The notes: generated by a model from the sequence alone, not told the origin. DNA of 64,000 nt from Patescibacteria group bacterium (GCA_041651155.1 JBAZJU010000004.1:39427-103426); one strand, 5' to 3'. Positions 2,074 through 63,346 are shown, numbered from the stretch's first letter. Numbers and translations are program-made.

Positions 2074-2108
2074 CAAACCTTCGTTCCGCATGGCGGGACT
2101 ACGGTTTG
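2074..2108 (-). repeat. REP-like structured palindromic element, instance 1 (caaacc-TTCG-ttccgc-atg-gcggga-CTAC-ggtttg on the plus strand)
   Basis: Same architecture as instances at 9512, 30367, 43321 and 63312, with covarying stems. Confidence 0.5.
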
Positions 2109-2216
2109 CAAAGGCAAATTCAATACAAATATTACAAATTAGTTTTTAGTAGTTTTGTAAATTATAAATTGGACAAATATTAGTATAATTAGTATTAAAT
2201 TAGTAAATTAGTATCT

Positions 2217-2912
2217 ATGTTAAAGATCGGCGGTTTGCAAAAAATAACTTTAATTGATTATCCTGGCCATTTAGCAGCTACGATTTTTTTAGCTGGCTGT
2301 AATTTTCATTGCGGTTTTTGCCATAACCCTGGTTTGGTAGAAATTAAACCCGGCCGAGAGTTTATTTCTGCCCAAGAAATTTTAGATTATTTATGCAAAA
2401 GAAAAGGGATTTTGGAAGCTGTCTGCATTAGTGGCGGTGAACCCTTAATCCAGCCGGATTTAAAGGATTTTTTAGCTCAAATTAAGTCTTTGGGTTATTT
2501 AATTAAACTGGACACCAATGGGTTTAACCCCGCTTTCTTAAAAGAATTACTAGCCCAGAATTTAATAGATTATATTGCCATGGATATTAAAGCTTCGCTT
2601 GCTAAATATGGGGAGATTACAAATGTAAAATCTGATTTTAAAAATATAGAAGAAAGCATCAAGATAATTTTGGCAGGGAACTTGCCATATGAATTTAGAA
2701 CAACTGTTTTGCCAAAATTTCATGACCCAAAGGAGATGGCAAAAATCGGGCAAATGATTACTGGCGCAAAAAATTACTATTTGCAAAATTTTAGAAATTT
2801 TAAAACTCTGGATCCCTCTTTTGCGCAAGAGCAGGCTTTTACCGAGGCTGAATTGCAAAAATTAAGAGAAATAGCCTTAAAATACGTTAAAAATTGTGAA
2901 ATCAGGAATTAG
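2217..2912 (+). CDS. nrdG: Anaerobic ribonucleotide reductase activating protein (radical SAM)
   Basis: CNFHCGFCHN radical-SAM CxxxCxxC motif near the N-terminus; 231 aa; immediately downstream of nrdD. Confidence 0.8.
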   Translation: MLKIGGLQKITLIDYPGHLAATIFLAGCNFHCGFCHNPGLVEIKPGREFISAQEILDYLCKRKGILEAVCISGGEPLIQPDLKDFLAQIKSLGYLIKLDTNGFNPAFLKELLAQNLIDYIAMDIKASLAKYGEITNVKSDFKNIEESIKIILAGNLPYEFRTTVLPKFHDPKEMAKIGQMITGAKNYYLQNFRNFKTLDPSFAQEQAFTEAELQKLREIALKYVKNCEIRN

Positions 2913-2938
2913 ATTTAAGATATTTGAGATGAATTAAA

Positions 2939-3244
2939 ATGACGATTTTAGAAAAAAAGATTTTATCTTTAGTTAACAAAATCCCCAAGGGGAAAGTAAC
3001 AACTTATGGCCTTTTAGCGTTAAAAATAGGTAATAGCCGTTTAGCGCGTGTTGTAGGAAATGCTGTACATAAAAATTTAAATATAATCGTGGTTCCTTGC
3101 CATCGGGTAGTCAAAAGTGATGGCCAGATCGGCAATTATCGCCTGGGTATTGCCAAAAAGACAGAATTGTTGCAAAATGAGGGTATAAAAATAAAGGCAG
3201 GTAAAATTTTAAATTTTACTGATGTCCTTTATAATTTTAATTAA
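2939..3244 (+). CDS. Methylated-DNA-protein-cysteine methyltransferase (MGMT/Ogt) DNA-binding/active-site domain protein
   Basis: VVPCHRVV active-site PCHR motif. The 101-aa size matches standalone MGMT C-terminal domain proteins. Confidence 0.75.
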   Translation: MTILEKKILSLVNKIPKGKVTTYGLLALKIGNSRLARVVGNAVHKNLNIIVVPCHRVVKSDGQIGNYRLGIAKKTELLQNEGIKIKAGKILNFTDVLYNFN

Positions 3245-3296
3245 ATTTAAAGTTTAGTTAAAATCTGTCCAGGTTTTGACTATTAAAAGGAACTAT

Positions 3297-3524
3297 ATGA
3301 AAAAATGTAAAAAATGCGGGGCGCCTTTGGAAGGTTTTCTTTATAATACCATTGGCAAATTAATGGGCATTAAGCCATCTGCTTCAGATCCAGAAACATG
3401 TAATAAATGCGCTGAAGATAAGACTGAAGAAGCGCCAAAGGCAGAAGAAAAAACTCCAGAAGTTGCCACTCCAGCTGAACCAATAGAAACTCAAGCAGAA
3501 GAAAAAGAAGATACTTCACTTTAA
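3297..3524 (+). CDS. Small hypothetical protein with CxxC...CxxC zinc-ribbon-like N-terminus and an acidic Pro/Glu-rich tail
   Basis: MKKCKKCGAP...CNKC. ATG at 3297 with AAAGGA 8 nt upstream; the track ORF begins at an upstream TTG. Confidence 0.4.
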   Translation: MKKCKKCGAPLEGFLYNTIGKLMGIKPSASDPETCNKCAEDKTEEAPKAEEKTPEVATPAEPIETQAEEKEDTSL

Positions 3525-3548
3525 AAATTTTTATTTAAAAAATTAAGG

Positions 3549-3577
3549 GACAGGAAAAATTTATTTTTCCTGTCTTT
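3549..3577 (+). terminator. Intrinsic terminator (perfect 12-bp hairpin gacaggaaaaat/atttttcctgtc plus T-run)
   Basis: Perfect inverted repeat with a 2-nt loop, followed by tttaatt. Confidence 0.6.
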
Positions 3578-3591
3578 AATTGGGTAAAATT

Positions 3592-4857
3592 ATGTTTGCA
3601 CAAAATAATAGTCAGGAGAAAATTTTTTCTAAAAATTTAATAGTTTTGGTTTTGATTTTTAGTTTGATTTTTGGCGGTTTAGCCGGAGCAGGCACAACTT
3701 TTTTAATTTTAAATAATTCAGGCAAGGCGGGTATTTTAAATATTCAATCCCAAGAGCAGAATAATTCTAATTTGACTAATAATGCAGGCACCTCCGGCAT
3801 TGACTTAGAAGCGGCAACTATCAGCGCAGTTAAAAAAACTCAACCTTCAGTTGTCAGTATAATTATTTCCAAAGAAGTCAGCGCTGTGCAGACTCCCAAT
3901 TTTAATGATTTTTTCCAGCTTGGTTTTCCTTTTCAATTTAATTTTGGCGAACCTGCCCAGCCTGCTCCTTCTCAAGATCAAAAGCCGCAAAAGCAGGAGA
4001 TTGGCGGTGGTTCTGGTTTTATTGTTTCCAATGATGGCTTAATCATTACCAACAAACACGTGGTGGCAGATGATGCCGCAAGTTATACTGTTTTAACCAA
4101 TGATGGCAAAAAATATGAGGCTAAAGTTTTAGCCAAAGATCCAACAAATGATTTGGCGGTCATAAAAATAGAGGCCAAAGATTTAACCCCATTAACTTTA
4201 GGCGATTCTGATAATATTGAAGTTGGCCAAACAGTGATTGCGATTGGCAATGCCCTGGGAGAATATAGAAATACTGTTACCAGAGGTGTAATTAGTGGGA
4301 TTAACAGGACAGTCCAGGCTGGCGGCCAGGGATTTACAGAAACTCTGGAAGAAGCGATCCAGACTGATGCAGCTATTAATCCGGGCAATTCAGGCGGTCC
4401 GCTTTTAAATTTAAAAGGCGAGGTCATTGGCATGAATACCGCAATTTCCCAATCAGGCCAATTAGTTGGCTTTGCCATACCGATCAATGAAGCCAAACAA
4501 GACATAGAGAGCGTGCAAAAAACTGGCAAAATTGTCAGGCCATATTTGGGTGTGCGTTATGTTCTTATCAATAAAGAAATTGTTGAGGCTAATAAATTAT
4601 CAGTTGATTATGGCGCTTTAATTTCCCGAGGCCAGACAGCAGATGAACTGGCTGTGGTGCCTGGTTCTCCGGCTGATAAAGCGGGCTTGGTTGAAAATGA
4701 TATTATTTTGGAAATAAATGGCCAGAAAATTGATGAGAGCCATTCATTGGCCAGACTTTTGGCAAAATATGCGCCGGGCGATGAAGTTGAACTTAAGATT
4801 TCACACAAAGGGGAAGAAAAGACTGTTAAGGTTAAATTGGAGGAAAGGAAGGATTGA
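3592..4857 (+). CDS. HtrA/DegP-family serine protease with N-terminal membrane anchor and C-terminal PDZ domain
   Basis: Trypsin-like GNSGGPL motif, HV...D catalytic segments, PDZ-like C-terminus. An alternative TTG start lies at 3580. Confidence 0.85.
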   Translation: MFAQNNSQEKIFSKNLIVLVLIFSLIFGGLAGAGTTFLILNNSGKAGILNIQSQEQNNSNLTNNAGTSGIDLEAATISAVKKTQPSVVSIIISKEVSAVQTPNFNDFFQLGFPFQFNFGEPAQPAPSQDQKPQKQEIGGGSGFIVSNDGLIITNKHVVADDAASYTVLTNDGKKYEAKVLAKDPTNDLAVIKIEAKDLTPLTLGDSDNIEVGQTVIAIGNALGEYRNTVTRGVISGINRTVQAGGQGFTETLEEAIQTDAAINPGNSGGPLLNLKGEVIGMNTAISQSGQLVGFAIPINEAKQDIESVQKTGKIVRPYLGVRYVLINKEIVEANKLSVDYGALISRGQTADELAVVPGSPADKAGLVENDIILEINGQKIDESHSLARLLAKYAPGDEVELKISHKGEEKTVKVKLEERKD

Positions 4858-4917
4858 TAAATTGTTAAACTGTTAAATGATTAAATTATTAAACTGATAA
4901 ATTGTTGAATTGTAAAA

Positions 4918-4947
4918 AGAACAGTCTCGCAATATGGGGCTGTTTTT
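4918..4947 (+). terminator. Terminator-like hairpin plus T7 run after the htrA-like gene
   Basis: aacagtctcgcaatatggggctgttttttt. Confidence 0.45.
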
Positions 4948-4981
4948 TTGTATAATATTAGCCACAAATGGGCCTTAATAC

Positions 4982-5010
4982 TTGACTGAATTATATAAAT
5001 ATGCTATAAT
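4982..5010 (+). promoter_or_regulatory. Consensus sigma70-type promoter (TTGACT, 17 bp, TATAAT) driving the GC-rich ORF
   Basis: TTGACT at 4982-4987, a 17-nt spacer, TATAAT at 5005-5010. AGGAGG RBS 8 nt before the ATG at 5062. Confidence 0.6.
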
Positions 5011-5061
5011 AACAAATCTAGTAAATTAACAAGTAATAAGCTCAAAAATAGGAGGATTTGG

Positions 5062-5787
5062 ATGAGAAAATTTGAATTAGCCGATCTGGGCGGGTGCTTC
5101 CGCGAGGAAGTAGAACAAAATGGTGTTTTTGGAAAGATAATTTCTAGGCATCTCTGCGAAGTCCCCATCATTGATGGGGTATATGCCGATGAAAGATGCA
5201 AGGAACCGATTGCTCGTTTGGACGGATGCGTCGAAGATTTGCTTTCAGCCGCTGATCCAGATCTGGATGAGATTTGGACACTGGTAAAGCGTGAGCAAAA
5301 GGCCAGGTCTGACGCCATGAATCGGGAGCTTTCCGTATGGGATGCTCAAGCAGAGGCGGACTTTGACCGAGAGGGTGAGATGGAAGAACCAGACGAGCTG
5401 AGTTTTACAATCAGCGGGCGATATTTCGCCAACCTTGAAAAGCTCGATGAATTCATCGGAATCTCGGCCGATCTGCATTGGCCGAGTGATACCTGGTGTC
5501 CTGAGGAAATGAAGGAACCTGATCCCCAGGAACAATTTCCATTGCCAAAACGTCCCAAGCAGATATATGAGGAGGGGACGCCTCCGAGATTCATGGGTTC
5601 CTCTAGGCGGAATTGCGGGCGAAAGCCACGCGGCATTCAAAATTGCCGGGTGAAAATTCGCAGAGCCCGTCATGAGAAGAGGAATGAATTTCGATCTTTG
5701 GCAGAGGAAGAAATTATCGAGCAGGAATGCCAAATAGAAGAGGATTATGCTGCGGCTCTGGACTTTGCCCAGCATGGTCAAGTCTGA
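5062..5787 (+). CDS. Hypothetical acidic protein encoded in a GC-rich (~50% GC) compositional island
   Basis: 241-aa ORF with strong promoter and RBS. No recognisable family. GC content is far above the flanks, and antisense ORFs overlap as expected in GC-rich DNA. Confidence 0.5.
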   Translation: MRKFELADLGGCFREEVEQNGVFGKIISRHLCEVPIIDGVYADERCKEPIARLDGCVEDLLSAADPDLDEIWTLVKREQKARSDAMNRELSVWDAQAEADFDREGEMEEPDELSFTISGRYFANLEKLDEFIGISADLHWPSDTWCPEEMKEPDPQEQFPLPKRPKQIYEEGTPPRFMGSSRRNCGRKPRGIQNCRVKIRRARHEKRNEFRSLAEEEIIEQECQIEEDYAAALDFAQHGQV

Positions 5788-5804
5788 CACTCATAACTTT
5801 ACGT

Positions 5805-5872
5805 GCGGCGCATTGATAATCAATGTGCCGCTTTTCTTTTTAATTTAGCTCTTTTCAAAGGAGCTTTTTTTT
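5805..5872 (+). terminator. Two tandem intrinsic terminators closing the GC-rich island
   Basis: gcggcgcattg/caatgtgccgc hairpin plus ttttcttttt (5805-5841); agctcttt/aaggagct hairpin plus T8 (5847-5872). Confidence 0.55.
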
Positions 5873-5892
5873 GTTAGAATTAAGGTAAGTTT

Positions 5893-5921
5893 GAAAGTTA
5901 TAAAGTTTATAAAGTATAAAG
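5893..5921 (+). repeat. Left inverted-repeat arm (gaaagttataaagtttataaagtataaag) flanking the four-helix-bundle gene
   Basis: Its reverse complement actttataactt recurs at 6282-6293. A near-identical arm occurs at 54541-54570. Confidence 0.55.
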
Positions 5922-5929
5922 AAAATATT

Positions 5930-6274
5930 ATGAAATTTGAACGATTTGAGGATATTATTGCTTGGCAAAAAAGTAAAGAATTAGTCATTTCTGCCTATGC
6001 TTGTTTTAAAGAATGCATAGATTATAGTTTTAGGAATCAAATACAAAGAGCTGTTATTTCAATTATGAATAATATTGCCGAAGGATTTGAGAGAAAAACA
6101 AACAAGGAATTTATAAGATTTTTATATATGGCCAAGGGTTCGTGCGGAGAAGCAAGATCAATGTTATATTTAGCTTTAGAATTAAAATATATTTCAAGAG
6201 AAGATTTTGAAAAAAATTATAATATGGCATTAGAAATTTCAAAAATATTATCAGGATTAATAAAATCTTTATAA
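5930..6274 (+). CDS. Four-helix-bundle protein of the 23S rRNA intervening-sequence protein family
   Basis: Family hallmarks: N-terminal FEDLxxWQ-type helix (FEDIIAWQKSKEL), central NIAEG and AKGS segments, length about 115 aa. Confidence 0.7.
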   Translation: MKFERFEDIIAWQKSKELVISAYACFKECIDYSFRNQIQRAVISIMNNIAEGFERKTNKEFIRFLYMAKGSCGEARSMLYLALELKYISREDFEKNYNMALEISKILSGLIKSL

Positions 6275-6299
6275 ACTTTCTACTTTATAACTTTTTACT
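6274..6299 (+). repeat. Right inverted-repeat arm flanking the four-helix-bundle gene
   Basis: aactttctactttataactttttact contains the reverse complement of the left arm. Confidence 0.5.
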
Positions 6300-6304
6300 A
6301 AATC

Positions 6305-7399
6305 ATGAAAGAAGGAGAATTGATCGTAAAACTTAAAGATTTGCAGCAAAAAATAAAAGAAGCCTGGGGCTTTCTTGGCATTGAGGAAAAAATGCAGGAA
6401 ATTGAAAAATTAGAAGCCATGATGGGCAAGCCTAGCTTTTGGCTGGAGCAAGATAAGGCCAAAGCGATTAGCCAGAAAGCCAGTGATTTAAAAAAAGAAA
6501 CAGAAACCTGGCAGAAACTTAAAAAGGAAATTGAGGAAGCTTTAGAATTGGCAAAAATGGATGAGAAAGATCAGTCATTAAGCTTAAGGGAGGAAATTGA
6601 AAAAAAGTATCTGGAATTGGAAAAAGAATTTGCTGAATTAGAATTTTTCCTTTTATTTAGAGAGCCACATGACAAAAGCAATGCGATTTTGGCAATCCAT
6701 GCGGGCACTGGCGGAGTTGATGCCATGGATTGGGCAGGAATGCTAATGCGCATGTATTTGCGCTATTGCGACAAAAAAGGCTTTAAAACAGAAATTTTAG
6801 ATCAAAATTCTGGGTCAGAAGCTGGTATAAAAAGCGTAGTTATTGAAGTGACGGGAAATTATGCTTATGGCAATTTAAAATCAGAAAATGGCGTGCATCG
6901 TCTGGTGCGCATTTCACCTTTTGACGCAGAAAAAATGCGCCATACTTCTTTTGCCTTGGTTGAAGTTATTCCGGAAATTGACGAAGAGCTTGATTTGGAA
7001 ATTAAGCCAGAAGATTTAAGAATTGATACATATCGCGCGTCAGGCCATGGCGGGCAAAATGTGCAGAAAACTGAAACAGCAGTACGGGTAACTCATTTGC
7101 CGACAAAAATTGTAGTTGCTTGCCAAAGCGAGCGTTCACAAGCCCAAAATAAAGAGCGCTGTTTAAAAATTTTAAAATCAAAATTGCAAAAGCTGGAAGA
7201 AACAAAAATTGAAGCAGAAAAAAAACAGCTGCGCGGCGAATTTACAGAAGCTGTCTGGGGCAATCAGATTCGCTCTTATGTCTTGCAGCCATATCATCTG
7301 GTTAAAGACCATCGCACTGATTTTGAAAAAGCTGACGTAGATGCGGTTTTGGACGGAAATTTGGAAGGATTTGTGGAGGCATATTTAAAGCAAAAATAA
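6305..7399 (+). CDS. prfB: Peptide chain release factor 2 (single continuous ORF, no programmed +1 frameshift)
   Basis: SPF tripeptide (RISPFD) and GGQ motif (GHGGQNVQ). The N-terminal region is contiguous, with no in-frame TGA. Confidence 0.85.
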   Translation: MKEGELIVKLKDLQQKIKEAWGFLGIEEKMQEIEKLEAMMGKPSFWLEQDKAKAISQKASDLKKETETWQKLKKEIEEALELAKMDEKDQSLSLREEIEKKYLELEKEFAELEFFLLFREPHDKSNAILAIHAGTGGVDAMDWAGMLMRMYLRYCDKKGFKTEILDQNSGSEAGIKSVVIEVTGNYAYGNLKSENGVHRLVRISPFDAEKMRHTSFALVEVIPEIDEELDLEIKPEDLRIDTYRASGHGGQNVQKTETAVRVTHLPTKIVVACQSERSQAQNKERCLKILKSKLQKLEETKIEAEKKQLRGEFTEAVWGNQIRSYVLQPYHLVKDHRTDFEKADVDAVLDGNLEGFVEAYLKQK

Positions 7400-7401
7400 T
7401 T

Positions 7402-8346
7402 ATGGAAGGAAAAAGTAAAATTTTAGTCACGGGTGGCGCCGGTTTTATCGGTTCGCATTTAACCGATATATTAATCTCCGAAGGCTGCCGGGTTTATATT
7501 ATTGATAATCTTTCAACAGGACAAAGGCAGAATATTCATCCTGGAGCAAATTTTTTCAAATTTGATATTCAAGATAAAAAAGTTGAAGATTTGTTTAAAG
7601 ACATAGGTTTTGATTACGTCTTTCATACAGCCGCTCAAGTGAATTTGCGCAAATCAGTTGATAATCCTGTTTTTGACGCCAAGACAAATATTCTAGGCAC
7701 TTTGAATATTTTAGAAAACTGCCGCAAATACGGGATTGAAAAAATTATTTTTTCTTCAACTGGCGGAGCAATTTATGGCGAAGCAAAAATTGTTCCTACC
7801 CCGGAAACTTATGAAGCTAAACCTGTTAGTCCCTATGGCGTAGCCAAATTGACAATTGAAAATTATTTGTATTACTATCGTCGTGTATTTAATCTGAATT
7901 ATACTATTTTGCGTTATGCCAATGTTTACGGGCCACGGCAGAATAGTTTAGCCGAAGCTGGAGTAGTTTCAATTTTTATTAATAAAATTTTACAAGATGA
8001 ACAGCCGATTATTAATGGCGATGGTCTGCAAACGCGTGATTATGTTTATGTTGACGACGTAGTTAGAGCCAATTTGCTGGCAATGACTGTAAAAGATATT
8101 GGAATTTATAATGTGGCTACTGGCCAGCAAAACACCGTTAATCAGATTCTCAAATTAGTCGCAGCCGGTTTTTTTGATAAGAAAGTTGAAGAAAAGCATG
8201 GGCCGGCCATGCTGGGAGAACAGCGCATAAGCTGTTTGGCGATTGATAAAATTAATAAATATTTAAATTGGCAGCCCAAAATCAGCTTAGATCAGGGTAT
8301 AAAATTAACAGTTGAGTGGTTTAAACAAAATTATGATAGACAATAA
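7402..8346 (+). CDS. NAD-dependent sugar epimerase/dehydratase (UDP-glucose 4-epimerase-like)
   Basis: N-terminal GGAGFIGSH Rossmann motif; YxxxK-type SDR fold; 314 aa. Confidence 0.8.
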   Translation: MEGKSKILVTGGAGFIGSHLTDILISEGCRVYIIDNLSTGQRQNIHPGANFFKFDIQDKKVEDLFKDIGFDYVFHTAAQVNLRKSVDNPVFDAKTNILGTLNILENCRKYGIEKIIFSSTGGAIYGEAKIVPTPETYEAKPVSPYGVAKLTIENYLYYYRRVFNLNYTILRYANVYGPRQNSLAEAGVVSIFINKILQDEQPIINGDGLQTRDYVYVDDVVRANLLAMTVKDIGIYNVATGQQNTVNQILKLVAAGFFDKKVEEKHGPAMLGEQRISCLAIDKINKYLNWQPKISLDQGIKLTVEWFKQNYDRQ

Positions 8347-9007
8347 AGTTTGGATAATTATTCCAGCCCACAATGAACAAGAAAATATTTTTGGTGTAAT
8401 TAAAAGCGTTCAAGAATTAACGCCCAATATTGTAATTGTAAATGATGCCTCAACCGACAGGACAGGGGATATTGTTAAGGCTTTAAATTGCTATATGTTA
8501 GAACACATGGTAAATCGCGGCCAAGGCGCGGCTTTGCAGACCGGCACGGAGTTTGCTCTAGCCAATGGCGCTGAGATAATTGTGCATTTTGACGCTGACG
8601 GCCAGATGCAGGCCAAGGATATTTACCGCATCATTAATCCAATTTTAGACAGGCAGGCTGAGATTGTATTTGGCACGCGTTTTTTAGGAAAAAAATCAAA
8701 AATGCCCTGGACAAAAAAATATTTCATACTAAAACCGGCCATAATTTTCAACTGGTTTTTTACGGGAATTAAATTAAGCGATGCGCACAATGGCTTTCGC
8801 GCGCTTTCCAGAAAAGCAGCTGAAACGATTAAAATTACTCAGGATAACATGGCTCATGCCACGGAAATTTTAGATCAGGTCAGAGCGCATGATTTAAATT
8901 ACACTGAAGTGCCGGTAGAAATTGTTTACAATCAGTATGGTCAGAAATTTACTAGTGGTTTTAAAATTATCCGTGATTTAATTTTTGCGAAAATATTTGG
9001 AAAATGA
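8333..9007 (+). CDS. Family 2 glycosyltransferase (Dpm1-like)
   Basis: IIIPAHNE...VNDASTDRT GT2 N-terminal signature. ATG at 8333 overlaps the end of the epimerase gene. Confidence 0.75.
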   Translation: MIDNKVWIIIPAHNEQENIFGVIKSVQELTPNIVIVNDASTDRTGDIVKALNCYMLEHMVNRGQGAALQTGTEFALANGAEIIVHFDADGQMQAKDIYRIINPILDRQAEIVFGTRFLGKKSKMPWTKKYFILKPAIIFNWFFTGIKLSDAHNGFRALSRKAAETIKITQDNMAHATEILDQVRAHDLNYTEVPVEIVYNQYGQKFTSGFKIIRDLIFAKIFGK

Positions 9008-9086
9008 AAATTAATTTTTTAATTTCAAACTTAAATAAAAAATTTAATCCTTAATTATCTAGTTTCTAATTTCTTATTTCAAACCC

Positions 9087-9428
9087 ATGATTATTCAGAT
9101 ATTTTTAATCCTCTTTATAATTTACGTGGTGATTAAAGTCGCGCTTCGGTACCGCGATAAAATAATTTCTCTGCAGGAATTTGTGCTCTGGACGATTTTT
9201 TGGTTTTTGGTCGGTTTTGTGGTAATTTTGCCTGATACAACTTCAATGGTGGCCAATATAGTCGGTGTCGGACGCGGTGTGGATTTAGTGACTTACATTT
9301 CCATCCTTATTCTTTTTTATCTAGTCTTCAGGATATTGGTGCGAATGGATAAAATTGATAAAGATGTGACTAAGATTGTGCGCAAAATCGCCTTGGGATC
9401 CAAAGATGAGGAAGATGAGCAATCTTAG
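9087..9428 (+). CDS. Small integral membrane protein (GT-associated, DUF2304-like)
   Basis: 113 aa with 3-4 predicted TM helices, directly downstream of the GT2 gene. Confidence 0.45.
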   Translation: MIIQIFLILFIIYVVIKVALRYRDKIISLQEFVLWTIFWFLVGFVVILPDTTSMVANIVGVGRGVDLVTYISILILFYLVFRILVRMDKIDKDVTKIVRKIALGSKDEEDEQS

Positions 9429-9511
9429 AAAAACAAAAATCAAAATCCAAAAAACAAAACAATTTCAAAATTCAAAAGACAAAATAAATTCTAAATTCAA
9501 ATGACAAATGA

Positions 9512-9537
9512 CCTGCCTTCGCCAAGGCTACGGCAGG
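9512..9537 (+). repeat. REP-like element, instance 5 (degenerate): cctgcc-TTCG-ccaagg-CTAC-ggcagg
   Basis: Same TTCG/CTAC internal-loop architecture, about 35 nt upstream of ksgA. A GC-rich cctgcc/ggcagg stem also occurs at 53076-53118. Confidence 0.35.
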
Positions 9538-9570
9538 CAGGCAAATAATGAATATTAAAATTATTTAGGC

Positions 9571-10440
9571 ATGACAATAAATGAAATTAAATATCTTTTA
9601 GAACAATATGGAATTAGACCGAGCAAAAGCAAGGGGCAAAATTTTTTAATCAATAAAGAGATCTTAAAAAAAATTGTTGCAGCAGCTGATTTGAAAAATG
9701 ATGATAATGTCTTGGAAATTGGCCCGGGTCTGGGAATTTTAACTGAAGATTTAATCAAAAATTCAAAAAAAGTTTTAAGTGTAGAATTAGACAAGCGTCT
9801 AATCTTTTTTTTAAAGCAAAAATTTGCTCATCAGAAAAATTTGGAAATTTTTGAAGGTGATATTTTGAGGATTAAAAACAGCCAAATAGCAAACCTGCTT
9901 GATTGCCAAAAGGCTGGTTACAAAGTAGTGGCGAATTTGCCCTATAATATCACAAAACCGGTTTTGCGAAAATTTTTAACTTATGAGCCGAGGCCAAAAC
10001 TAATGGTTGTTCTGGTGCAAAAAGAGGTAGCCCAAAAAATCACAGCCAAGCCAGGGGAGATGAGCCTTTTAAGCTTATCAGTGCAACTTTATGGCCAGCC
10101 AGAAATAATTGGCTATGTTGGCAAGGAAAATTTTTATCCCCAGCCAAAGGTAGATAGTGCGATTTTAAAAATTGTGTTTTGGCCGCAAAATTTGGCGCCG
10201 GAAATAAGCCAAATTTTAGACAAAAACATGCAATTTGCAGCCAATAAGTTCTGGCAAATGGTAAAATTTGGCTTTAGTTCGCCAAGAAAACAGTTGCAGA
10301 ATAATTTATCAGCCGGTTTTAAGATACCTAAAGATGAAGTCATTTTGAGGTTAAAAACAGCTAAGTTAAGTGCAAAAATCAGGGCTCAAGACCTGGCTTT
10401 GAGTGATTGGCTCAACCTTTATCAGAAATTTGTAGTTTAA
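9571..10440 (+). CDS. rsmA: 16S rRNA (adenine1518/1519-N6)-dimethyltransferase
   Basis: KSKGQNFL N-terminal motif, LEIGPGLGILT SAM-binding motif, 289 aa. Confidence 0.85.
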   Translation: MTINEIKYLLEQYGIRPSKSKGQNFLINKEILKKIVAAADLKNDDNVLEIGPGLGILTEDLIKNSKKVLSVELDKRLIFFLKQKFAHQKNLEIFEGDILRIKNSQIANLLDCQKAGYKVVANLPYNITKPVLRKFLTYEPRPKLMVVLVQKEVAQKITAKPGEMSLLSLSVQLYGQPEIIGYVGKENFYPQPKVDSAILKIVFWPQNLAPEISQILDKNMQFAANKFWQMVKFGFSSPRKQLQNNLSAGFKIPKDEVILRLKTAKLSAKIRAQDLALSDWLNLYQKFVV

Positions 10441-10520
10441 AGAAGCTTTTTGTGTTATAATTATATTCAGAGATCTGAGAGAAAGGCCCAGGAAGTTTTA
10501 AAATTTAAAAGATAAATATA

Positions 10521-11375
10521 ATGGCCTTTGGTAAAGAAAAAATTAAAGAATTTCTTGAGGGAAAAACTGAAAAAATAAGTGAAAAAATTGAAAAGACTCC
10601 CATTGACAAGTTCTTCCTGTTTTTTTTGATTTTAATTACAATTTCAGCCCTAGTTTTGGGTTACCTGCAGTTTAAGAAAAATCTGGAGTCGCCTTTAGCA
10701 GACAGTTATTTAAGGGAAAAAAGAGGCCAGCTAAGGGACCAGTATGGTTTGCTTAATTTAATTAATGGCAATGAAAATACCAACCAAAATTTAAGCCAGG
10801 CAGATATTGATAAATTAAAAAGCCAGGATAGTGATTTGGACGGCCTGAATGATTATGAAGAAATATATATTTACCATACCAATGCTTATAACGAAGACAC
10901 TGATGGAGATGGCCTTAGCGATAAGCAGGAAGTTTTAAATAACACTGATCCTAATTGCGCCCAAGGCCAGGATTGCACTGCCTTACAAACAGCAGGCACT
11001 GTTACTTCTGCAGGGGATAATATAAATACAAATCAAGACTCGTCTGCCAGCCAGCCAGATTTAGCAAGCCTGGATCAGAATGCAATTTTAAATTTGGAAA
11101 CCCAGCTTTTATCAGGCGAAATTACTTTGCAGGATTTGGGCATTGATGACCCTGAATTGCAAAATACTTTTGATCAGATTAGAAACGGGCAAGCCACTGA
11201 TTTGAGCCAACTGCAGCCAGAGGAAAAGAGCGCGGCAATTGAGACTTTAAAAAATTTAACTCCGCAGCAAATCAGAGATGAATTGATCAAGCAAGGAATG
11301 TCTGAGGCTGATTTGGATAAAATAGATGATCAGACTTTGCAAAAAGTATTTTTGGACACAATAGGCAAATATTAA
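10521..11375 (+). CDS. Membrane-anchored protein with calcium-binding-like DxDxDG repeats (thrombospondin type 3-like)
   Basis: N-terminal TM segment, DSDLDGLNDYEE and DTDGDGLSDKQE motifs, acidic Gln-rich tail. Confidence 0.5.
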   Translation: MAFGKEKIKEFLEGKTEKISEKIEKTPIDKFFLFFLILITISALVLGYLQFKKNLESPLADSYLREKRGQLRDQYGLLNLINGNENTNQNLSQADIDKLKSQDSDLDGLNDYEEIYIYHTNAYNEDTDGDGLSDKQEVLNNTDPNCAQGQDCTALQTAGTVTSAGDNINTNQDSSASQPDLASLDQNAILNLETQLLSGEITLQDLGIDDPELQNTFDQIRNGQATDLSQLQPEEKSAAIETLKNLTPQQIRDELIKQGMSEADLDKIDDQTLQKVFLDTIGKY

Positions 11376-11410
11376 AAATTTTAAATAGAAAAATAAAAAG
11401 CCTTTTGACC

Positions 11411-14400
11411 ATGCAAAAGACAAAAAAAACAAAATTGCGTAAAGTAATAATCGGGTTTATTGCCGTATTTTTTGTTGTAAATAGTTTCAGCGCAATATTG
11501 ATTTTTAATGTTGAACAGGCAAGCGCTCAAGATAAGGCGGGGTCTGAAGTGGGAGTGACAGCAGGCATACCGGTTACAAATCAGGCATATGCAATAGAAA
11601 GATTTTTGGGCAGTGTAACTGATGAACTAAAAGCAGTGTTTTTCAAAAATATTTTAGGCAATTTGCTTAATAAAATCGCTTCCCAGACAGCTACTTGGAT
11701 TGCCACAGGCGCCAAAGGCAAAGGCCCATACTGGATTACCAATCTAAAGCAATTTACCACTGATTATGCTCAAGGCGCGATCACTGATATGGTCGTTGAA
11801 TCCATTAAGAATGTGACGGGCATAAATATCTGCGAATTTGATCCGCGCATGGCTATTGATTTAGCCCTGCAAATTCCCATGTTCCCGGAATATAAAGGTT
11901 ATCAGCCTAATTGCGATTACACAAAATTAAAAAATCATTGGGATGAAATCGGCAAGTCAAATTTGCTGACTTTTAATTATAGCATTACTGCCGGCGGAGA
12001 ATTTCAGAAAAATTCAGCTCAGCTTTCCAATTCAGTAAGCGTTGACAGGACTTTGTTGGTCTGGGATAAATCATTACTGCAATATCTTTTAAAACTGTCT
12101 CCTTGTGAGCCAAGCGGCATTGGCGAAATTACCTGCGTTGCTCCTGGAATGACTGAGAATCCAGAACAATATATTAAGTCCCAATTGCAGCAAATAGCTG
12201 ATGCTTTGGATACTTTAACTGGCAAATTAGCTTCTGATGTTGAGCTGATGACTAAAAATGCCCAATTAAATACGCCTGTGCAATTATATGTCGGTTCTTT
12301 TATTATCCAGCCGGAAAGAATAAATGACATTAAAGATGCCTGGAATAAAGAAATGGATATATGGGTGACCAAGGCTAATAAAATTAATGATCAATTCAGC
12401 AAATGCCAGAATAAAACCAGGGAGCAGCTTTTAGCTGATCCTAATTGCGTTTCTGTCTTGATTGAATTAGGGTTTGGAGCTTTAGATGTGCCTGGTGCGC
12501 AGTCATCTGTGCTTGTGCCAGATCCTGCGGCACAAACCGAATGCCAAATAATTGCTGGTTGTATGAAAGCTGATGATTGCGCAAATATCCCTGCTTGCAC
12601 AGGCGGTGATCCAATATGCCCGCCAGAATGTACTCAAGCAGATTGCAAAGAAACGCCAAAGCCATTGGGATGTATAAGGACTCAAAATTGCCAGGATTGC
12701 CTGGATAATATTGACGATTGCAGTAAGGTTCCTGCACGATGCAAAATAAGCGGATCTCAGGCTGTTAATACTTTCCAGAGCGAAGTAACAGCCAAAACAA
12801 CTTATGTCGCGGCCACAGCCACTTCTTTGATTAGCGGTTTTAATTATTTGAAAACTCAGATGAATGACAATCTCAACCCTGCCAATTTTGAAGGCGGGGC
12901 AGCTTACAGCGCTAAATTAGCCCAGGGACTTTTTGATCCTCAGGCCAACCAGTTTAATACCTATAAAACTTTATATGAGCAAATGGCCAAGGAAGGTTTA
13001 GGGACATTTGCCGAAAAGCAATTGCAGGCTACGGTTAATCAAGGCTGGAAAAATGCAGAGGACAAAATTTCCGGTTATATTAATACGCCGGCAGAACTTT
13101 TAAAAGCCAAGGCAGTTGAGGATTTGACCAAAAATGATACTTCATTAACCTATACCAAAAGCATAATCGCTGATTCTTTGGGTGTATTTTTAAAAACTTT
13201 GTGGAATAAATATATGCAAAAGCTTTTGAGTTCGCTTTCAAATTCCCACCAAGAACAAAACACCCAGCAATCTTTGGCAGCTCTTTCCGGAACGTCTGTG
13301 ACTGCGCCCCAATCATCAAGCGATCAATATACGCAAAGGATTATAAGCGCCCAGGGAGTGGAAAATTATATTACCAAATTAGCCCAGCAGTTTACAGTTA
13401 ATTTTTCATTTAAAGATGTGGATCTTTTAAGCGCCTTCCAGACAAATTTAAGCGGCGAAGTTAATCCGGATCTTTATAATAATGTCATTGATCAGAATTT
13501 AGCCCAGGCTATCAATGATAAATTAACCATCAAAGAGGCTCTGGCTCAAAATAAATTAATCGGCACATATACATTTTCCTGGAATGAAAAAGCAGATTTG
13601 GGGACATATAACTTAGCTAATCTGAAGAAATTAAGAAAAGCGCGCGTTATCCCTCTGGGTTTGGAATTAGCCGCTGAATTAGTCAGGGATTGCAATTATC
13701 GCCAAGATTTGGGGGCTGATTATGCGCAATATAAAGATTTAGATTTTGATGATACGAATTTTTCCAATGCTTCATTGCAGGGCTATAGCAATACAGCAGA
13801 TCCTTTAAAATACCAAAGGTTAAGAAATTGTTTATTTAAGCCTTTGACAGAAAGTACTTCAGATGCGGCTGCGGTCAGGAATTATAACAGTAAACGATTA
13901 AATGAATCAGTTAAGGCAACTTTGGCTGAGGTGGTCTCTGGGTTTGATAAGTCTGGGACAGGCGCTTGCGGCGGCAATGATTTAGATGAAGAGGAGTCTC
14001 CTTTCTGCAATTTAGTCAATCCCAACTGGGTTTTAAAATTGCCAGTGACTAAATGTTCCCTGCCGACTGAGGCTGAGCCATATGGTGAGATATTGCAATC
14101 AAATAATGATGTCTCACGCTATTCCCATTGTCCGGATTTTGCCAGCTGTTTGCAGGACGATGGCAAAGGCGGCTGTGTCGGTGAAAATTATGGCTTCTGC
14201 GTGAAGGAAAAAAACGTCTGGCAATTCAATGTCAATACTTGCCCGGCTGACTTTAATAGCTGTCAGACTTTTAAAACAGATAAGTCAGATAACGCCAGCC
14301 TGGTTTCATATTTAAAAAATACCTTAAGCGGCAGTGATGTTTGCAGTGCGGCCAATGCCGGTTGCACTTCGTATTTAACTAAAACAGATCAGGCCAGCGC

Positions 14401-19756: not shown

Positions 19757-19764
19757 AAAAATAA

Positions 19765-22700: not shown

Positions 22701-22863
22701 AACTTTTAAGCCCGAGTTATTAAAGCAAGAGTTATCAAAGCTGGTAGAGATGTTGGGTAAATTTGAAAGTAAAGAAGAGGCAACTTCAGCAGTCAAAAAA
22801 GTTGAAGACGCTGTTGAGGCCTTGGGTTATAAAGTTAAAACTCAAAAAGGGAAAAAGAAATAA
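19765..22863 (+). CDS. VirB6/TrbL-like polytopic membrane protein with long C-terminal charged (K/E-rich) domain
   Basis: About 8 TM helices in the first ~340 aa, then ~690 aa of hydrophilic coiled-coil-like sequence. Sits beside the VirB4 ATPase. Confidence 0.5.
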   Translation: MLAKIKNFFLHNKTAQIYLLNVGLVVFILLIVFYPLTVHADILSGIVSNAFNSGISIIIFILNAFIKLFGSLLTVVMGVLTWIAQYNKFIDNPYVNEGWVILRDLVNMFFVLGLLFIAFVTVLGIEKQPWNKLLARLLIMAIMVNFSKTICGLIIDFFQVLMLTFVNAFKDITSGNIEKALGMENWFKILPTATGAQGEITGGTDWRQGLTAVAGSLLGLIYVMVAFIVVLIFCVVLAFRMVALWILVVFSPLAFFAWAFEGAAGKVGKFANEWWDQFFNYCVVGPCIAFFLWISLITMAKLNYDQMNTSVTAADRAKINADIGAGSSMDQVLSVLIGIIMLVSGLTMCSKYAGAAAGVMTKGANFIKDQTAGRLERAATRVGRETAGVVGAPFRAAGAMAKLPFKALKPFATGAAEGAKERLQRGPFSRLLTKEGRAQTAEAMRERGRALVPGVGRLGIREMRAKQAEDFKKIRKDINWENPDQIRKIQEAAIERDPKTSKITRVENKDRRFWESTYTALADAGKLKYSDIEDMKSLPFYQEMQTESGDRGRQVFLEDMEKRYEKKTQIKKAFSSLIYNADTNEYDDIEDLEERSDTAKSRAKTAGRDLSGIDFNKIRRKKDDGTYEFDVNSDEYKNLAKNDPDNLAYLQNLQAQGTGTKSDFYALARSTEIREKKFNEIRKAAATASEPNLNEAGKQANLGDIIQNPPDYAVAEIDGFTDQIPRIGKLDKIARDNVNAKARFLMGDNRERAALIEANKNLFDKSLHRQENETENEHATRLGGMSQIKKIDDIKGKMKEEQLEKFQNLIIESSSQFNAIGQKLPGGEGQSSANLDSIIRQKRVQSGVTAGLKAFIPNVNDLEFVDAQAAQMLAQTADFPREDRINKISIRLAVRKNLPEENRNKIAEYLIDNEVIVRTREKKEEAVKEKVKVNIKTTIDEVKKQVQSRVIDQGKIEFAIDNIIFRINKEITEGALPEETFKPELLKQELSKLVEMLGKFESKEEATSAVKKVEDAVEALGYKVKTQKGKKK

Positions 22864-28933: not shown

Positions 28934-29141
28934 TAAGGAAATCACTATTAAGCTATTAAGCGGATCAAAATCCGCCGAAGCCCGACTCAGAAAATTTTTA
29001 TTTAAAGCCTTCCCTCTAAAACTATAGAGGGCGAAGGCGGAGCCCAGATGCAAGTTTGTGTATTTCATCGGTAAAGCCGTATAAATAATATTGATAAATA
29101 TTTTACGGTTGAATTATAAATTACACAGACTTGCATCTGGG

Positions 29142-29228: not shown

Positions 29229-29391
29229 ATATTTTATAACTATAACAAATAACTATATTATCGCCCAGCTACAAGTTTATGTGAAGGACGGAGACCCGAT
29301 AAAAGTTTATGAATTTTGTTGTTCAAATCCGTTAAATAACCATTTATTATTAAATCAGTTGCAGATATTTATTCACAGACTTTTATCGGGT

Positions 29392-30281: not shown

Positions 30282-30366
30282 TTAGCACGTTAAACCAATT
30301 ACATTCTTCGTACACCAATAAAGGTTATTTCGACAAATACACAAGCTTTTATCTGTCCTCGTAGTT

Positions 30367-30401
30367 TCCACCTTCGCCCCGCGTTGCGGGGCTACGGTGG
30401 A
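30367..30401 (-). repeat. REP-like structured palindromic element, instance 2 (tccacc-TTCG-ccccgc-gtt-gcgggg-CTAC-ggtgga)
   Basis: Outer and inner stems covary relative to the other instances. Confidence 0.5.
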
Positions 30402-30430
30402 CGGGCAATGGATTTTATATTTTAAATTAA

Positions 30431-30502
30431 GTCCTCGTAGTTCAATGGATAGAACGCAAGATTGCGGATCTTGTGATCTAGGTTCGATTCCTAGCGGGGG
30501 CA
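30431..30502 (+). tRNA. tRNA-Arg (anticodon GCG)
   Basis: Acceptor GTCCTCG/CGGGGGC (two G-U pairs), D stem GTTC/GAAC, anticodon stem CAAGA/TCTTG with loop TTGCGGA, T-arm CTAGG-TTCGATT-CCTAG. Confidence 0.6.
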
Positions 30503-30555
30503 CAGGTTCTCAGCCAAAGGCCTGGCCTTGGCCAAGACAGGCTGATTCGCCTCTG

Positions 30556-43205: not shown

Positions 43206-43320
43206 GGAATGACAAAATTAAAATGACAAAAAACAAAATAAATTCAAAATATAAAATCCAAATAACAAAATTTTTGATTTAGTTATTTTGATTTTGGTAT
43301 TATTTTGTAATTTGCCTTCG

Positions 43321-43354
43321 CAAACCGTAGTTTGCTAAGGCAAACGAAGGTTTG
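43321..43354 (+). repeat. REP-like structured palindromic element, instance 3 (caaacc-GTAG-tttgc-taag-gcaaa-CGAA-ggtttg), 30 nt upstream of the pmm/pgm start
   Basis: The upstream gccttcg (43314-43320) can alternatively pair with cgaaggc. Confidence 0.5.
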
Positions 43355-45648: not shown

Positions 45649-45686
45649 AAAGAGGTTCGACCTCCAATTTGGAGGTCGAACCTCTT
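45649..45686. repeat. Conserved palindromic hairpin repeat (copy 2): aagaggttcgAcctccaatttggaggtcgaacctctt
   Basis: Differs by compensatory G/A and C/T changes from copy 1 at 33404-33441. Confidence 0.55.
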
Positions 45687-53046: not shown

Positions 53047-53070
53047 TCCCGAGCCAATCGGGATTTTTAT
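53047..53070 (+). terminator. Intrinsic terminator (atcccga/tcgggat hairpin plus T5), followed by a GC-rich cctgcc/ggcagg hairpin at 53076-53118
   Basis: aatcccgagccaatcgggattttt. Confidence 0.5.
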
Positions 53071-53124
53071 CCTGCCTGCCGCCTGCCTGTCCGGTAGGCA
53101 GGGCAGGCAGGTCTAATAATTACC

Positions 53125-58114: not shown

Positions 58115-58130
58115 ATGAATACTTAAACCA

Positions 58131-62205: not shown

Positions 62206-62246
62206 TTGGAGATTGAAAAAAGTACCTTAAAAAGGAGAATTAAATT

Positions 62247-62741
62247 ATGCCTATAGTAACTGGAGAATTCAGAGATCATTTTACAGTAGAAGTAGAGGAG
62301 ATGCCTAATCAATATGGTAAATACACTCTTTACGTGGATTTAGGTGAAGAAGTAAAAATTTTTATCCGCTATAGTAAAAGCGGCGAAAAATACCCTTGCA
62401 AAGAATTAAAAATGGAAATCAGCGGAATTACTAGAAGAGGATGCTGGAGAAGAATAACTAAGCCTAAAGAAAAATTGGAATCCTGGAAAAATAAACAAGG
62501 GTTAGGTCATTGTGTGGTATTTCATGATTGGCAAAGACCAGATATTCATCGGTTATTTGTTGATCTGGGAACTGAAGTAATAATTGAAATCAGGCGCTAT
62601 ACCGGTAAACTACTCTGGGGACATTGGCCGGAGCTAAAAAGCAATACTGAAATCGGCACAATAACAGCTAATGGGACTTGGAAAAGAAACATAAAACCAA
62701 AGGAGGAATCAATTTCGGTCAATCCACCTTTGGCGGATTGA
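62247..62741 (+). CDS. Cassette ORF 9: 164-aa soluble protein with two tandem ~60-aa internal repeats
   Basis: YTLYVDLGEEVKIFIRY... and HRLFVDLGTEVIIEIRRY... are paralogous halves. Confidence 0.45.
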   Translation: MPIVTGEFRDHFTVEVEEMPNQYGKYTLYVDLGEEVKIFIRYSKSGEKYPCKELKMEISGITRRGCWRRITKPKEKLESWKNKQGLGHCVVFHDWQRPDIHRLFVDLGTEVIIEIRRYTGKLLWGHWPELKSNTEIGTITANGTWKRNIKPKEESISVNPPLAD

Positions 62742-62753
62742 CCCTCAACTTGA

Positions 62754-62776
62754 GCATATGACAATGTGTCGTATGC
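62754..62776. promoter_or_regulatory. Palindromic operator-like site gcatatgaca-atg-tgtcgtatgc upstream of ORF 62853
   Basis: 9/10-matching inverted repeat sharing the GACA-n-TGTC core. Confidence 0.45.
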
Positions 62777-62852
62777 TGGAGATTGGGAAATGAACCTTAA
62801 AAAAGAAGGGTCGCTTTCGCATAAAGCTATGGCGACCAAAAGGAGGAAGAAA

Positions 62853-63221
62853 ATGAGAATCAACAAAAATAGCTGGCATTATCGTTTGGTAGAAAAAACG
62901 ATTGAAGATCACAGGTTTCATGTGGGGTGGAACCACAAATTACCTGAAAAAAAATGCAGATATTTTTTAATCTTACTGCATGGTATTTTTTCTTACGCAG
63001 TTGGGCCTGCATTAATAATGATAGGTCTTTGGCTCTTTATTATTCACCGTAAGGAATGGGTTTACATTTTACTAACATTTGCAATCTTTGCATTTGTTAG
63101 TACTGTATTTACTCTATTTGGTTACGGCTTGCATAAGCTGTATAAGTCACATGAAGAGGACTTCAAAAAATGGTTCAAAAAATGCAAAGACAAAATTTGC
63201 ACTGATGTTGAGTATTTCTAA
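62853..63221 (+). CDS. Cassette ORF 10: membrane protein with N-terminus MRINKNSWHYRLV (paralog of ORF 60043)
   Basis: ATG at 62853 behind a GGAGG RBS; two or three TM helices. Confidence 0.45.
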   Translation: MRINKNSWHYRLVEKTIEDHRFHVGWNHKLPEKKCRYFLILLHGIFSYAVGPALIMIGLWLFIIHRKEWVYILLTFAIFAFVSTVFTLFGYGLHKLYKSHEEDFKKWFKKCKDKICTDVEYF

Positions 63222-63263
63222 AAAATTTTCGGTGAGCCAGATCTAATAATCTGGTTCACCTTT

Positions 63264-63304
63264 CGTCTTTAGCCCGGGAAATTTTTTCATGGGTTAAAAA
63301 ACGG
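63264..63304 (+). repeat. Cassette box1 copy h
   Basis: cgtctttagcccgggaaattttttcatgggttaaaaaacgg, preceded by hairpin ggtgagccagat...atctggttcacc plus ttt. The REP-like element is inserted between box1 and the RBS box. Confidence 0.7.
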
Positions 63305-63311
63305 TCAATGC

Positions 63312-63346
63312 TAACCGTAGTCCCGCCAACGCCGGGACGTAGGTTG
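63312..63346 (+). repeat. REP-like structured palindromic element, instance 4 (taacc-GTAG-tcccgcc-aac-gccggga-CGTA-ggttgg) within a cassette leader
   Basis: Same architecture as the other instances. Confidence 0.45.

Follow-up and report, generated by a model that had tools for sequence, protein, structure and literature searches.

What are the five short hairpins that recur, with differing stems, along a 64,000-nucleotide (nt) stretch of DNA from a Patescibacteria group bacterium (GCA_041651155.1, JBAZJU010000004.1:39427-103426; the whole stretch analysed is hereafter called the window)? The initial annotation described them as a dispersed family resembling repetitive extragenic palindromic (REP) sequences, in which a fixed internal loop, likened to the sarcin-ricin or loop-E motif of RNA, is enclosed by stems that change in sequence and stay complementary. 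With a probability of roughly 60%, the analysis here presented points to copies of a small mobile element devoid of genes, the hairpin being the 3' module of a unit that inserts with long target-site duplications of variable length; in this process the hairpin would serve as an enzyme handle, and copying would proceed in a manner similar to target priming.

All five instances were recovered where they had been annotated. The pattern CCGTAG-N4-34-CGWAGG matches the window five times against 0.02 matches expected by chance, and the covariance model described below, run with its filters off, finds these five copies only, with scores from 36.7 to 51.3 bits, the next best match reaching 12.4 bits. 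The copies are as follows.

2074-2108 (core; 2074..2112 with its 5' extension), minus strand: copy c1, TTTG-CAAA-CCGTAG-TCCCGC-CAT-GCGGAA-CGAAGG-TTTG, between nrdD and nrdG; 51.3 bits.
9512-9537 (core; 9512..9541 extended), minus strand: copy c2, of the short form, CCTG-CCTG-CCGTAG-CCTTGG-CGAAGG-CAGG, between DUF2304 and ksgA; 36.7 bits.
30367-30401 (core; 30367..30405 extended), minus strand: copy c3, CCCG-TCCA-CCGTAG-CCCCGC-AAC-GCGGGG-CGAAGG-TGGA, between a hypothetical gene and tRNA-Arg; 51.3 bits.
43321-43354 (core; 43317..43354 extended), plus strand: copy c4, TTCG-CAAA-CCGTAG-TTTGC-TAAG-GCAAA-CGAAGG-TTTG, between a hypothetical gene and glmM; 39.1 bits.
63311-63347 (core; 63307..63347 extended), plus strand: copy c5, AATG-CTAA-CCGTAG-TCCCG-CCAACGC-CGGGA-CGTAGG-TTGG, between two hypothetical genes; 41 bits.

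The shared architecture that had been proposed, consisting of an outer stem, GTAG placed opposite CGAA and a variable inner part, stands with two exceptions: c5 is a deviant copy having CGTA instead of CGAA, and c2 lacks a real inner stem, just two pairs (G-C and C-G) closing its CUUG-type loop. The inner stem of c4 is AT-adapted. At its 5' side every copy has 4 additional nt (TTTG, CCTG, CCCG, TTCG and AATG from c1 to c5), the G at position -5 being invariant in the five. Upon folding as DNA, the proposed hairpin is recovered and its internal "loop" is predicted to be a T-A pair between two G.A mismatches, with z-scores of -2.8 to -5.3 in four copies (-10.4 kcal/mol and z -4.8 for c1) and the weakest value in c5 (z -1.2). 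Copies c1 and c2 are identical in two other assemblies of the same organism, where no empty site that would indicate strain polymorphism was seen (c1 corresponds there to L124 and L125, L numbers designating the loci retrieved), and the covariance model detects no further copies in the extra 10 kb upstream provided by another of its assemblies.

Scanning one genome per species for CCGTAG-N-CCCGC-N3-8-GCGG-NN-CGAAGG, an exact 21-base core pattern, confirmed that the family is dispersed: at least 120 loci in species genomes match it, about 1.6 being expected by chance according to our own estimate. By record title, the matches listed include about 41 loci from Patescibacteria, about 45 from Verrucomicrobiota, 8 from other members of the Planctomycetes-Verrucomicrobia-Chlamydiae (PVC) superphylum (Kiritimatiellota, Victivallales, Planctomycetota and Omnitrophota) and about 15 labelled delta- or gamma-proteobacteria, while L019, L023 and L110 look like chance matches in coding sequence. 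The same 12-nt box, often with the same inner stem, is found from Patescibacteria of 37% G+C to GC-rich Verrucomicrobiota. A phage origin was considered and discarded, the strict pattern being present on only two viral contigs.

Alignment of 127 copies from many genomes produced an extended consensus, reading C-Y-T-G, 4-nt arm, CCGTAG, YCCCGC, loop, GCGGGR, CGAAGG and arm complement, together with the covariance model. CCGTAG lies directly 5' of the inner hairpin in these 127 copies and in all five of the window, while in roughly half of all copies CYTG stands 4-5 nt before CCGTAG; the idea of CYTG as a promoter was judged weak. Pairing is selected for around the fixed G.A/T-A/A.G box. The four variable pairs of the outer stem reach a covariation score of 0.194 versus 0.097 in shuffled alignments, none of 500 shuffles attaining the observed value, as exemplified by alignment columns 14 and 46 (GC 54, UA 27, GU 9 and AU 7). 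The claim that the stems vary yet stay complementary around a constant loop is therefore upheld for the outer stem, the search pattern having held the inner one constant in this set. Additional copies in the same loci keep the box and carry very different inner parts, including 5-7-nt loops, other hairpins, some reaching over 40 nt, and inserts of up to 70 nt. The short form, with its 5-7-nt loop, is common to c2, L017, L067, L001 and L120; the inner stem measures 5-7 bp in the long form and 2 bp in the short one (c2 and many others), and a GAAG variant of GTAG also occurs. Across the 13 pairs of the model there are 57 pairs of the G.T type versus 34 A.C and C.A mismatches (tallied separately), which leans weakly towards the GTAG strand as the folded one.

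What the initial description did not include is that the hairpin forms just the 3' module of a longer unit, inserted with duplications of 8-30 nt on its flanks. In 135 copies, the tandem array of L010 being excluded, the 9-mer following CGAAGG was sought within the 112 nt upstream with at most one mismatch, expectation being derived from mismatched pairings. With a start 3-8 nt after CGAAGG, immediately past the 4-nt 3' arm, the 9-mer was found again upstream in 19-24 of the 135 copies (22-24 at offsets 3 and 4), where 1.7 were expected, an excess of about 13 times, and just 3-5 copies show such recurrence at offsets 0-1 or from 40 onwards. A wider scan over all loci, including those retrieved from metagenomes with a tRNA pattern, provided 35 duplication pairs of 8-30 nt, 25 of them starting at offset 3-4 and with leaders clustering at 20-46 nt. 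The 5' side is ragged: in the 135-copy test the upstream duplicate ends 0-7 nt before CYTG in 5 of 23 matches and 23-50 nt before it in 16, leader length overall ranges from 0 to 110 nt, and a mirror test on the 9-mer just 5' of the element gave no comparable sharp junction. Simple tandem duplication was rejected as the source of the flanking repeats, the sequence between the two repeat copies not being duplicated.

Sequence shared between copies at unrelated sites further delimits the unit. About 30 nt upstream of CCGTAG are common to c1, c4 and one copy of L001, a contig of a metagenome-assembled genome (MAG) of Parcubacteria, these three sites being non-orthologous, and this indicates that the leader belongs to the inserted unit; c2 and a second, near-identical L001 copy at a different site have about 20 nt of leader in common. 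Nested copies (in L020, one element lies within the loop of another) and tandem arrays (L010, L082 and L120) are also found. As annotated, the copies are intergenic and occur in either orientation, which is evenly distributed with respect to the flanking open reading frames (ORFs): 25 are antisense to both, 22 sense to both, and 15 and 14 fall in the two mixed classes. A long element with distant halves, perhaps carrying genes, was also considered and rejected, orphan 5' halves being chance matches or decayed copies.

One window copy, c3, was inserted at the beginning of a gene, and c2 probably was as well; the features involved are the following.

30355..30366, plus strand: first copy of the c3 target-site duplication, GTCCTCGTAGTT, identical to nt 1-12 of the tRNA-Arg beginning at 30431.
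30406..30430, plus strand: leader of c3 (reverse complement), CAATGGAT (30406-30413) matching tRNA positions 13-20 and being followed by 17 AT-rich nt with a TATATT -10-like box.
30431..30503, plus strand: intact tRNA-Arg(GCG), its first 12 nt being the second copy of the duplication.
9501..9511, plus strand: probable first copy of the c2 target-site duplication, ATGACAAATGA, abutting the 3' end of the element and resembling the start of ksgA.
9571..9584, plus strand: probable second copy of the c2 target-site duplication, ATGACAATAAATGA, the true ksgA start.

In c3 the duplicate is an exact 12-mer whose second copy starts 25 nt after the element, and the element splits the duplicated 5' fragment of the tRNA-Arg after nucleotide 12. 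In c2, ATGACAAATGA and ATGACAATAAATGA match except for a 3-nt gap, and the duplication is rated only as probable because the ungapped 9-mer test missed it. Near the insertion-bearing tRNA-Arg, at 29138-29483, two tRNA-Ser genes (TGA and GCT) lie on the minus strand of an otherwise plus-strand region, in a small tRNA cluster.

The layout of c3 recurs beside a different tRNA-Arg in L088, labelled Peribacteraceae, and upstream of tRNAs in L017 (twice), L030 and L057, while a metagenome scan for GTAGCT-NNNN-CCTTCG...CTACGG returned 12 loci that all display it. Among 15 distinct cases, 13 read as tRNA nt 1-12, element, 25-98 nt (mode 38-45) and the same 12-mer running into the intact tRNA. The tRNAs concerned are those for Ala, Arg, Met, Asp, Lys, Trp, Thr and His, and the duplicated acceptor-stem sequence differs for each of them, which means that it derives from the target and is not carried by the element. 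Insertions apparently succeeded one another in L127, L128 and L134. Of 147 copies, 15 have a tRNA no more than 60 nt away. Seven of these 15 make up a second tRNA-linked class: they start 0-2 nt from the 3' end of the tRNA, the tRNA strand reads CCTTCG...CTACGG in every one of them, and their outer stem pairs CCA. Two further copies are placed just after a 16S rRNA gene. At L014 2021-2440, one and the same 56-nt sequence begins 1 nt after CCA behind two genes, for tRNA-Lys and tRNA-Arg, and it contains a GAAG-variant element whose outer stem pairs the CCA end; this arrangement suggests that the element was duplicated along with the tRNA 3' ends or that it has a role in the 3' trailer.

This association with stable RNA genes bears on the reading of the hairpin as RNA. 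The sarcin-ricin or loop-E interpretation found no support: only GUA and GAA of the AGUA/GAA consensus are present, the 5' A is replaced by C, and the register of the outer stem fits a symmetric 3x3 loop (G.A, U-A, A.G); furthermore, the opposite strand has a pyrimidine-rich loop, although the copies show no preferred orientation with respect to transcription, and the excess of G.T-type pairs over A.C and C.A mismatches is only modest. Comparison by eye with the K-turn, the hammerhead core and the 11-nt receptor led to their rejection as well, their defining positions being different. In a broader form, the hairpin would be a functional RNA, maintained in leaders, in the spacers of operons and in tRNA or rRNA precursors through selection acting on the RNA, either as a loop-E-like protein-binding or RNase-processing signal or as an RNA stabiliser or terminator. 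Compensatory stem changes with a fixed internal loop, the CUUG-type tetraloop of the short form and a U.G pair of c1 on the gene-sense strand, corresponding to a C.A mismatch on the other strand, agree with such a function, but co-directional gene pairs split into 22 sense versus 25 antisense copies and the complementary strand lacks the purine-rich loop. A terminator in particular is at odds with the lack of a T-tract on either strand in any of the five copies, and a terminator scan of positions 1-20000 reported neither c1 nor c2. Proximity to tRNAs, including the CCA-pairing class, position after 16S rRNA genes and conservation of the c3 arrangement beside a tRNA of a different genome would also suit an RNA signal, which nonetheless leaves the target-site duplications, the nested copies and the duplicated tRNA 5' fragments unexplained. 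Moreover, no Rfam 15 family matches the element at or above its gathering threshold in the window, in 18 loci or in a tandem array, with E values up to 10 considered; matches in the window and the 18 loci correspond to tRNAs, rRNA and RNase P RNA only, and the best sub-threshold one for the element, THF-II with 13.7 bits versus a threshold of 41, is meaningless, microRNA matches also appearing. As the primary explanation, a functional RNA is therefore quite unlikely, though not exclusive of mobility, inasmuch as inserted copies could have been co-opted secondarily.

Spacing to the downstream gene raises a different alternative. The neighbours of all five copies are co-directional plus-strand genes, to which three copies are antisense and two sense, and for four of the five, 29-31 nt separate the end of the copy from the following start codon or tRNA (c2 lies 29 nt before the start codon of ksgA, c4 30 nt upstream of glmM). 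This regularity, together with the resemblance of the 5' CTTGCC/CTTGTC to a -35 box, would be that of a protein-binding site in double-stranded DNA, such as an operator or a promoter element about 30 nt before gene starts. What operators conserve is bases and not pairing; the element, by contrast, has co-varying arms around a fixed asymmetric box. No -10 box is read at the right spacing inside the element, and copies also occur in arrays and after tRNA 3' ends. The spacing may itself reflect a leader plus a duplication that rebuilds the gene start, which holds for c3 and is probable for c2. Thus, a double-stranded DNA site appears very improbable.

Insertion of a mobile unit brings these observations together. 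The unit reads 5'-[leader, little conserved and mostly of 20-50 nt]-CYTG-[4-nt arm]-CCGTAG-[inner part, a short loop or a variable hairpin]-CGAAGG-[complement of the 4-nt arm]-3', and its insertion into many unrelated sites has directly duplicated 8-30 nt of the target, one duplicate abutting the 3' arm exactly and the other lying upstream of the leader. Insertions within the first ~12 nt of a gene, as in c3 (tRNA-Arg) and probably in c2 (ksgA), survive because the duplication rebuilds the gene start. The hairpin with its G.A/T-A/A.G box may act as a handle for a trans-acting enzyme working on single-stranded nucleic acid, a role that would explain stems co-varying around a fixed box, and copying may start at the element 3' end from a nick in the target, in a target-primed, retroposition-like fashion. 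Target priming in non-LTR (long terminal repeat) retroposons leaves the 3' end defined and the 5' end variable, with long duplications that differ in length, while Y1/HUH enzymes (those of the REP-associated tyrosine transposase, RAYT, and IS200/IS605 types) leave no target-site duplication, and DDE transposases need two defined ends and produce a duplication of fixed length. The sharp 3' end, the ragged 5' end and the long variable duplications hence suggest target-primed copying, rather than Y1/RAYT peel-and-paste or a two-ended DDE transposase, and target-primed synthesis from the 3' end is considered the most likely class of mechanism; an RNA intermediate is purely conjectural.

A more specific proposal, which we put forward tentatively as it is on balance improbable, is that of a bacterial counterpart of the short interspersed nuclear elements (SINEs). 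A transcript of ~60-95 nt ending in the GUAG/CGAA hairpin would be copied at a target nick by a reverse transcriptase, encoded by the host or by the element, that recognises the hairpin; the 8-30-nt duplications would result, exposed single-stranded DNA (tRNA D-arm regions and gene starts) would be preferred, and spread would cover Patescibacteria, the PVC superphylum and other phyla. The precise 3' end, the variable 5' end and the variable-length duplications are those found in SINEs.

Several observations weigh against a mobile, target-primed element. Clean duplications are seen in only about 1 in 6 copies, and none was detected at c1, c4 and c5, which may be old insertions. Some flanks are short tandem repeats able to mimic duplications, as in L086 and L094. 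The modal gap of 38-45 nt between element and tRNA equals a promoter length, and the tRNA cases may have an alternative parse, in which the element came to lie upstream of the native promoter together with a copied 5' end of the transcript; this parse would explain the mode and does not fit the insertion of L034, located in an rRNA spacer. Neither a reverse transcriptase nor a nuclease or transposase linked to the element was found in the window or among the neighbouring genes of the loci, and the GTAG tag and G.T-tolerant stems are equally compatible with REPs of the RAYT type. Finally, taxon labels come from MAGs and mis-binning could account for part of the phylum breadth, although the host flanks do differ in G+C content, from ~37% to >65%.

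Short tandem heptamer-like repeats (GTCATTT, GTCACT and TTCGTCATTC) often flank the element in unrelated genomes, as in the 3' flank of c2 (~9483-9511, plus strand), L069, L013, L113 and L095; they are in part target-site duplication, and a preference for inserting into short tandem repeats may also contribute.

Regarding gene content, the window carries only housekeeping genes plus one 23S rRNA intervening-sequence protein (23S-IVP)-like protein and one TraG-domain protein. All-against-all BLAST of 903 ORFs from the loci revealed no recurrent neighbour family other than ABC ATPases (7 loci), Y1 transposases (3) and 23S-IVP-like four-helix-bundle proteins (3). One of the latter is encoded at L001 393-1115, where a gene for 116 amino acids (aa), at 524-871 on the minus strand and resembling the 23S rRNA intervening-sequence (four-helix-bundle, Avd-like) family by sequence reading, lies between two inverted copies of the element (393-441, minus strand, and 1076-1115, plus strand); homologues are encoded in L057 and L104, and Pfam assigns a window protein to the same family.

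Other features of the window are unrelated to the element or of doubtful relation to it. A near-perfect 38-nt palindrome, AAGAGGTTCG(G/A)CCTCCAAATTGGAGG(C/T)CGAACCTCTT, occurs at 33407-33444 and 45649-45686, is 97.8% identical to a copy at L001 3263-3307 and may be another mobile hairpin or a bidirectional terminator. At 53065-53112, in an 83-nt gap before the gene at 53125, a long GC-rich hairpin of CCTGCC repeats, TCCTGCCTGCCGCCTGCCTG-TCCGGTA-GGCAGGGCAGGCAGG, matches the covariance model weakly (8.9-10.5 bits); the GTAG/CGAA box is missing from it, and it may represent a decayed copy or else a relative. Side by side at 11405-19756 and 19765-22863 lie two very large ORFs, of 2783 and 1032 aa; precomputed Pfam results for the same two proteins in L123 contain just a faint CBM_4_9 match, the preceding gene having a TSP3_bac domain, and the region 11405-22863 is probably a giant surface protein locus.

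To our knowledge, small gene-less bacterial repeats are currently explained by two mechanisms, that of REPs (Y1/RAYT, no duplication) and that of miniature inverted-repeat transposable elements (MITEs; DDE, two ends and a fixed duplication). With one defined end, one ragged end and long variable duplications, the element fits neither. No bacterial element with such an insertion signature was described in the literature searched, which is absence of evidence only, and a search for the literal strings CCGTAG and CGAAGG returned primer noise only. If target-primed synthesis were true, bacteria would have their first SINE-like retroposon, and a bacterial reverse transcriptase activity that has so far gone unrecognised would be indicated. 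Even with a DNA-based mechanism, the element would provide a marker readily used to follow past insertions in streamlined, uncultivated genomes, an example of how insertion at the first nucleotides of tRNA and protein genes is tolerated, the duplication rebuilding the gene, and a defined hairpin substrate for fishing out the enzyme.

The closest described class is the GTAG-tagged REP superfamily, in which GTAG precedes the hairpin, families GTAG-1 and GTAG-2 carry a conserved 3-nt tail, dimers, clusters and G.T pairs occur, and Verrucomicrobia and Planctomycetes are among the hosts (PMC3733652, Di Nocera et al. 2013). The element might accordingly be an ordinary family of this kind, mobilised as single-stranded DNA by a RAYT/TnpA-REP (Y1 HUH) protein encoded once elsewhere in the genome, the flanking repeats being secondary, for example through replication slippage at hairpins. 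The superfamily is defined by GTAG or GTGG placed 0-2 nt 5' of the hairpin foot, a position that GTAG also takes in the element. In layout the likeness holds: the GTAG tetranucleotide directly 5' of a short GC-rich hairpin, the short conserved tail opposite (CGAA in the element), extragenic units of 30-45 nt in both orientations forming dimers and clusters, complementary stem changes and tolerance of G.T pairs are common to both, and the tRNA D-arm (G-T-A followed by a hairpin), by mimicking a REP, could be a mis-target. Unlike GTAG REPs, the element has GTAG and CGAA opposite one another within a longer hairpin, which an additional co-varying 6-bp stem closes. REPs are, moreover, species-specific (PMC6006769), whereas the core of the element is identical across phyla, and REP-encoded peptides listed for Opitutus terrae do not match it. 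The rule given for REPs is a basal stem of 7-20 fully paired nt with a 2-5-nt loop (PMC6006769); the inner stem of the element has 5-7 bp in the long form and 2 bp in the short one.

Y1 transposase genes are present in 6 of 120 listed element-bearing loci, L001, the most window-like of those fetched, being one of them, but the Y1 genes inspected (L001, L040, L084 and L085) are flanked by other repeats, for example GTAGCGTCCGCTG... in L084 and GTAACGCAC...GTCATTCC in L001. The element comes within 450 nt of a Y1 gene only in L085, ~200 nt upstream and on one side, and a RAYT gene flanked by it (a REPtron) was seen in none of the loci examined. The window contains neither a RAYT (no tblastn match with 12 RAYT/TIRYT sequences) nor the REP of L001. 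That REP-like hairpin, GTA-ACNSAC-TRAA-GTSNGT-CRTTCC, flanks on both sides the Y1 (IS200/RAYT-like) transposase gene at L001 3920-4471 and has the same overall plan as the element (GTA tag, 6-bp stem, CG-WW-SS tail). The unit includes a variable 5' leader and is flanked by 8-30-nt duplications with a sharp 3' junction, about 13 times the expectation, of the sort that Y1/HUH transposition does not leave and that published descriptions of REPs do not mention. Overall, the annotated label of REP-like describes the layout of GTAG plus hairpin well and fails for the long variable duplications, the core identity across phyla and a cognate RAYT, none having been found; an ordinary REP family is consequently considered unlikely.

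Hairpin repeats tagged by CGTC provide another comparison. Neisseria NTS and the Ssn-related motifs (SRM) are cut by GIY-YIG SsnA nucleases, the degenerate motif being HGTCWYN(0-2)YYVSBRHN(0-5)WNVSBRGN(0-2)RNCYNB (PMC11893778). As in these, the hairpins are dispersed and carry an oriented, non-palindromic tag, NTS being recognised in the form of single-stranded DNA; TCCCGC/GCGGGA, the inner stem, is similar to ATTCCCGC/GCGGGAAT in NTS, and the reverse strand of most element copies reads CGTC at the hairpin foot. Membership was rejected upon inspection, the reverse-strand CGTCCC failing the W position of the motif. Target-site duplications are no described feature of NTS, and no ssnA-like gene was seen beside any copy, the three 23S-IVP-like proteins being the only small recurrent neighbours.

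With MITEs derived from DDE insertion sequences the element shares small size, lack of autonomy, multiple copies, intergenic location and target-site duplications, and it differs from them in having no conserved 5' terminal inverted repeat, a defined 3' end only and duplications of 8-30 nt instead of a fixed length. The comparison with eukaryotic SINEs and other non-LTR retroposons has limits of its own: the hosts are bacterial, the unit is only ~60-95 nt long and it bears no A-tail. It nonetheless resembles them in its absence of coding capacity, its precise 3' end with a conserved structured module, its ragged 5' end and its long variable duplications, and, like the tRNA-gene-targeting TRE elements of Dictyostelium, it often inserts at or near tRNA genes without destroying them.

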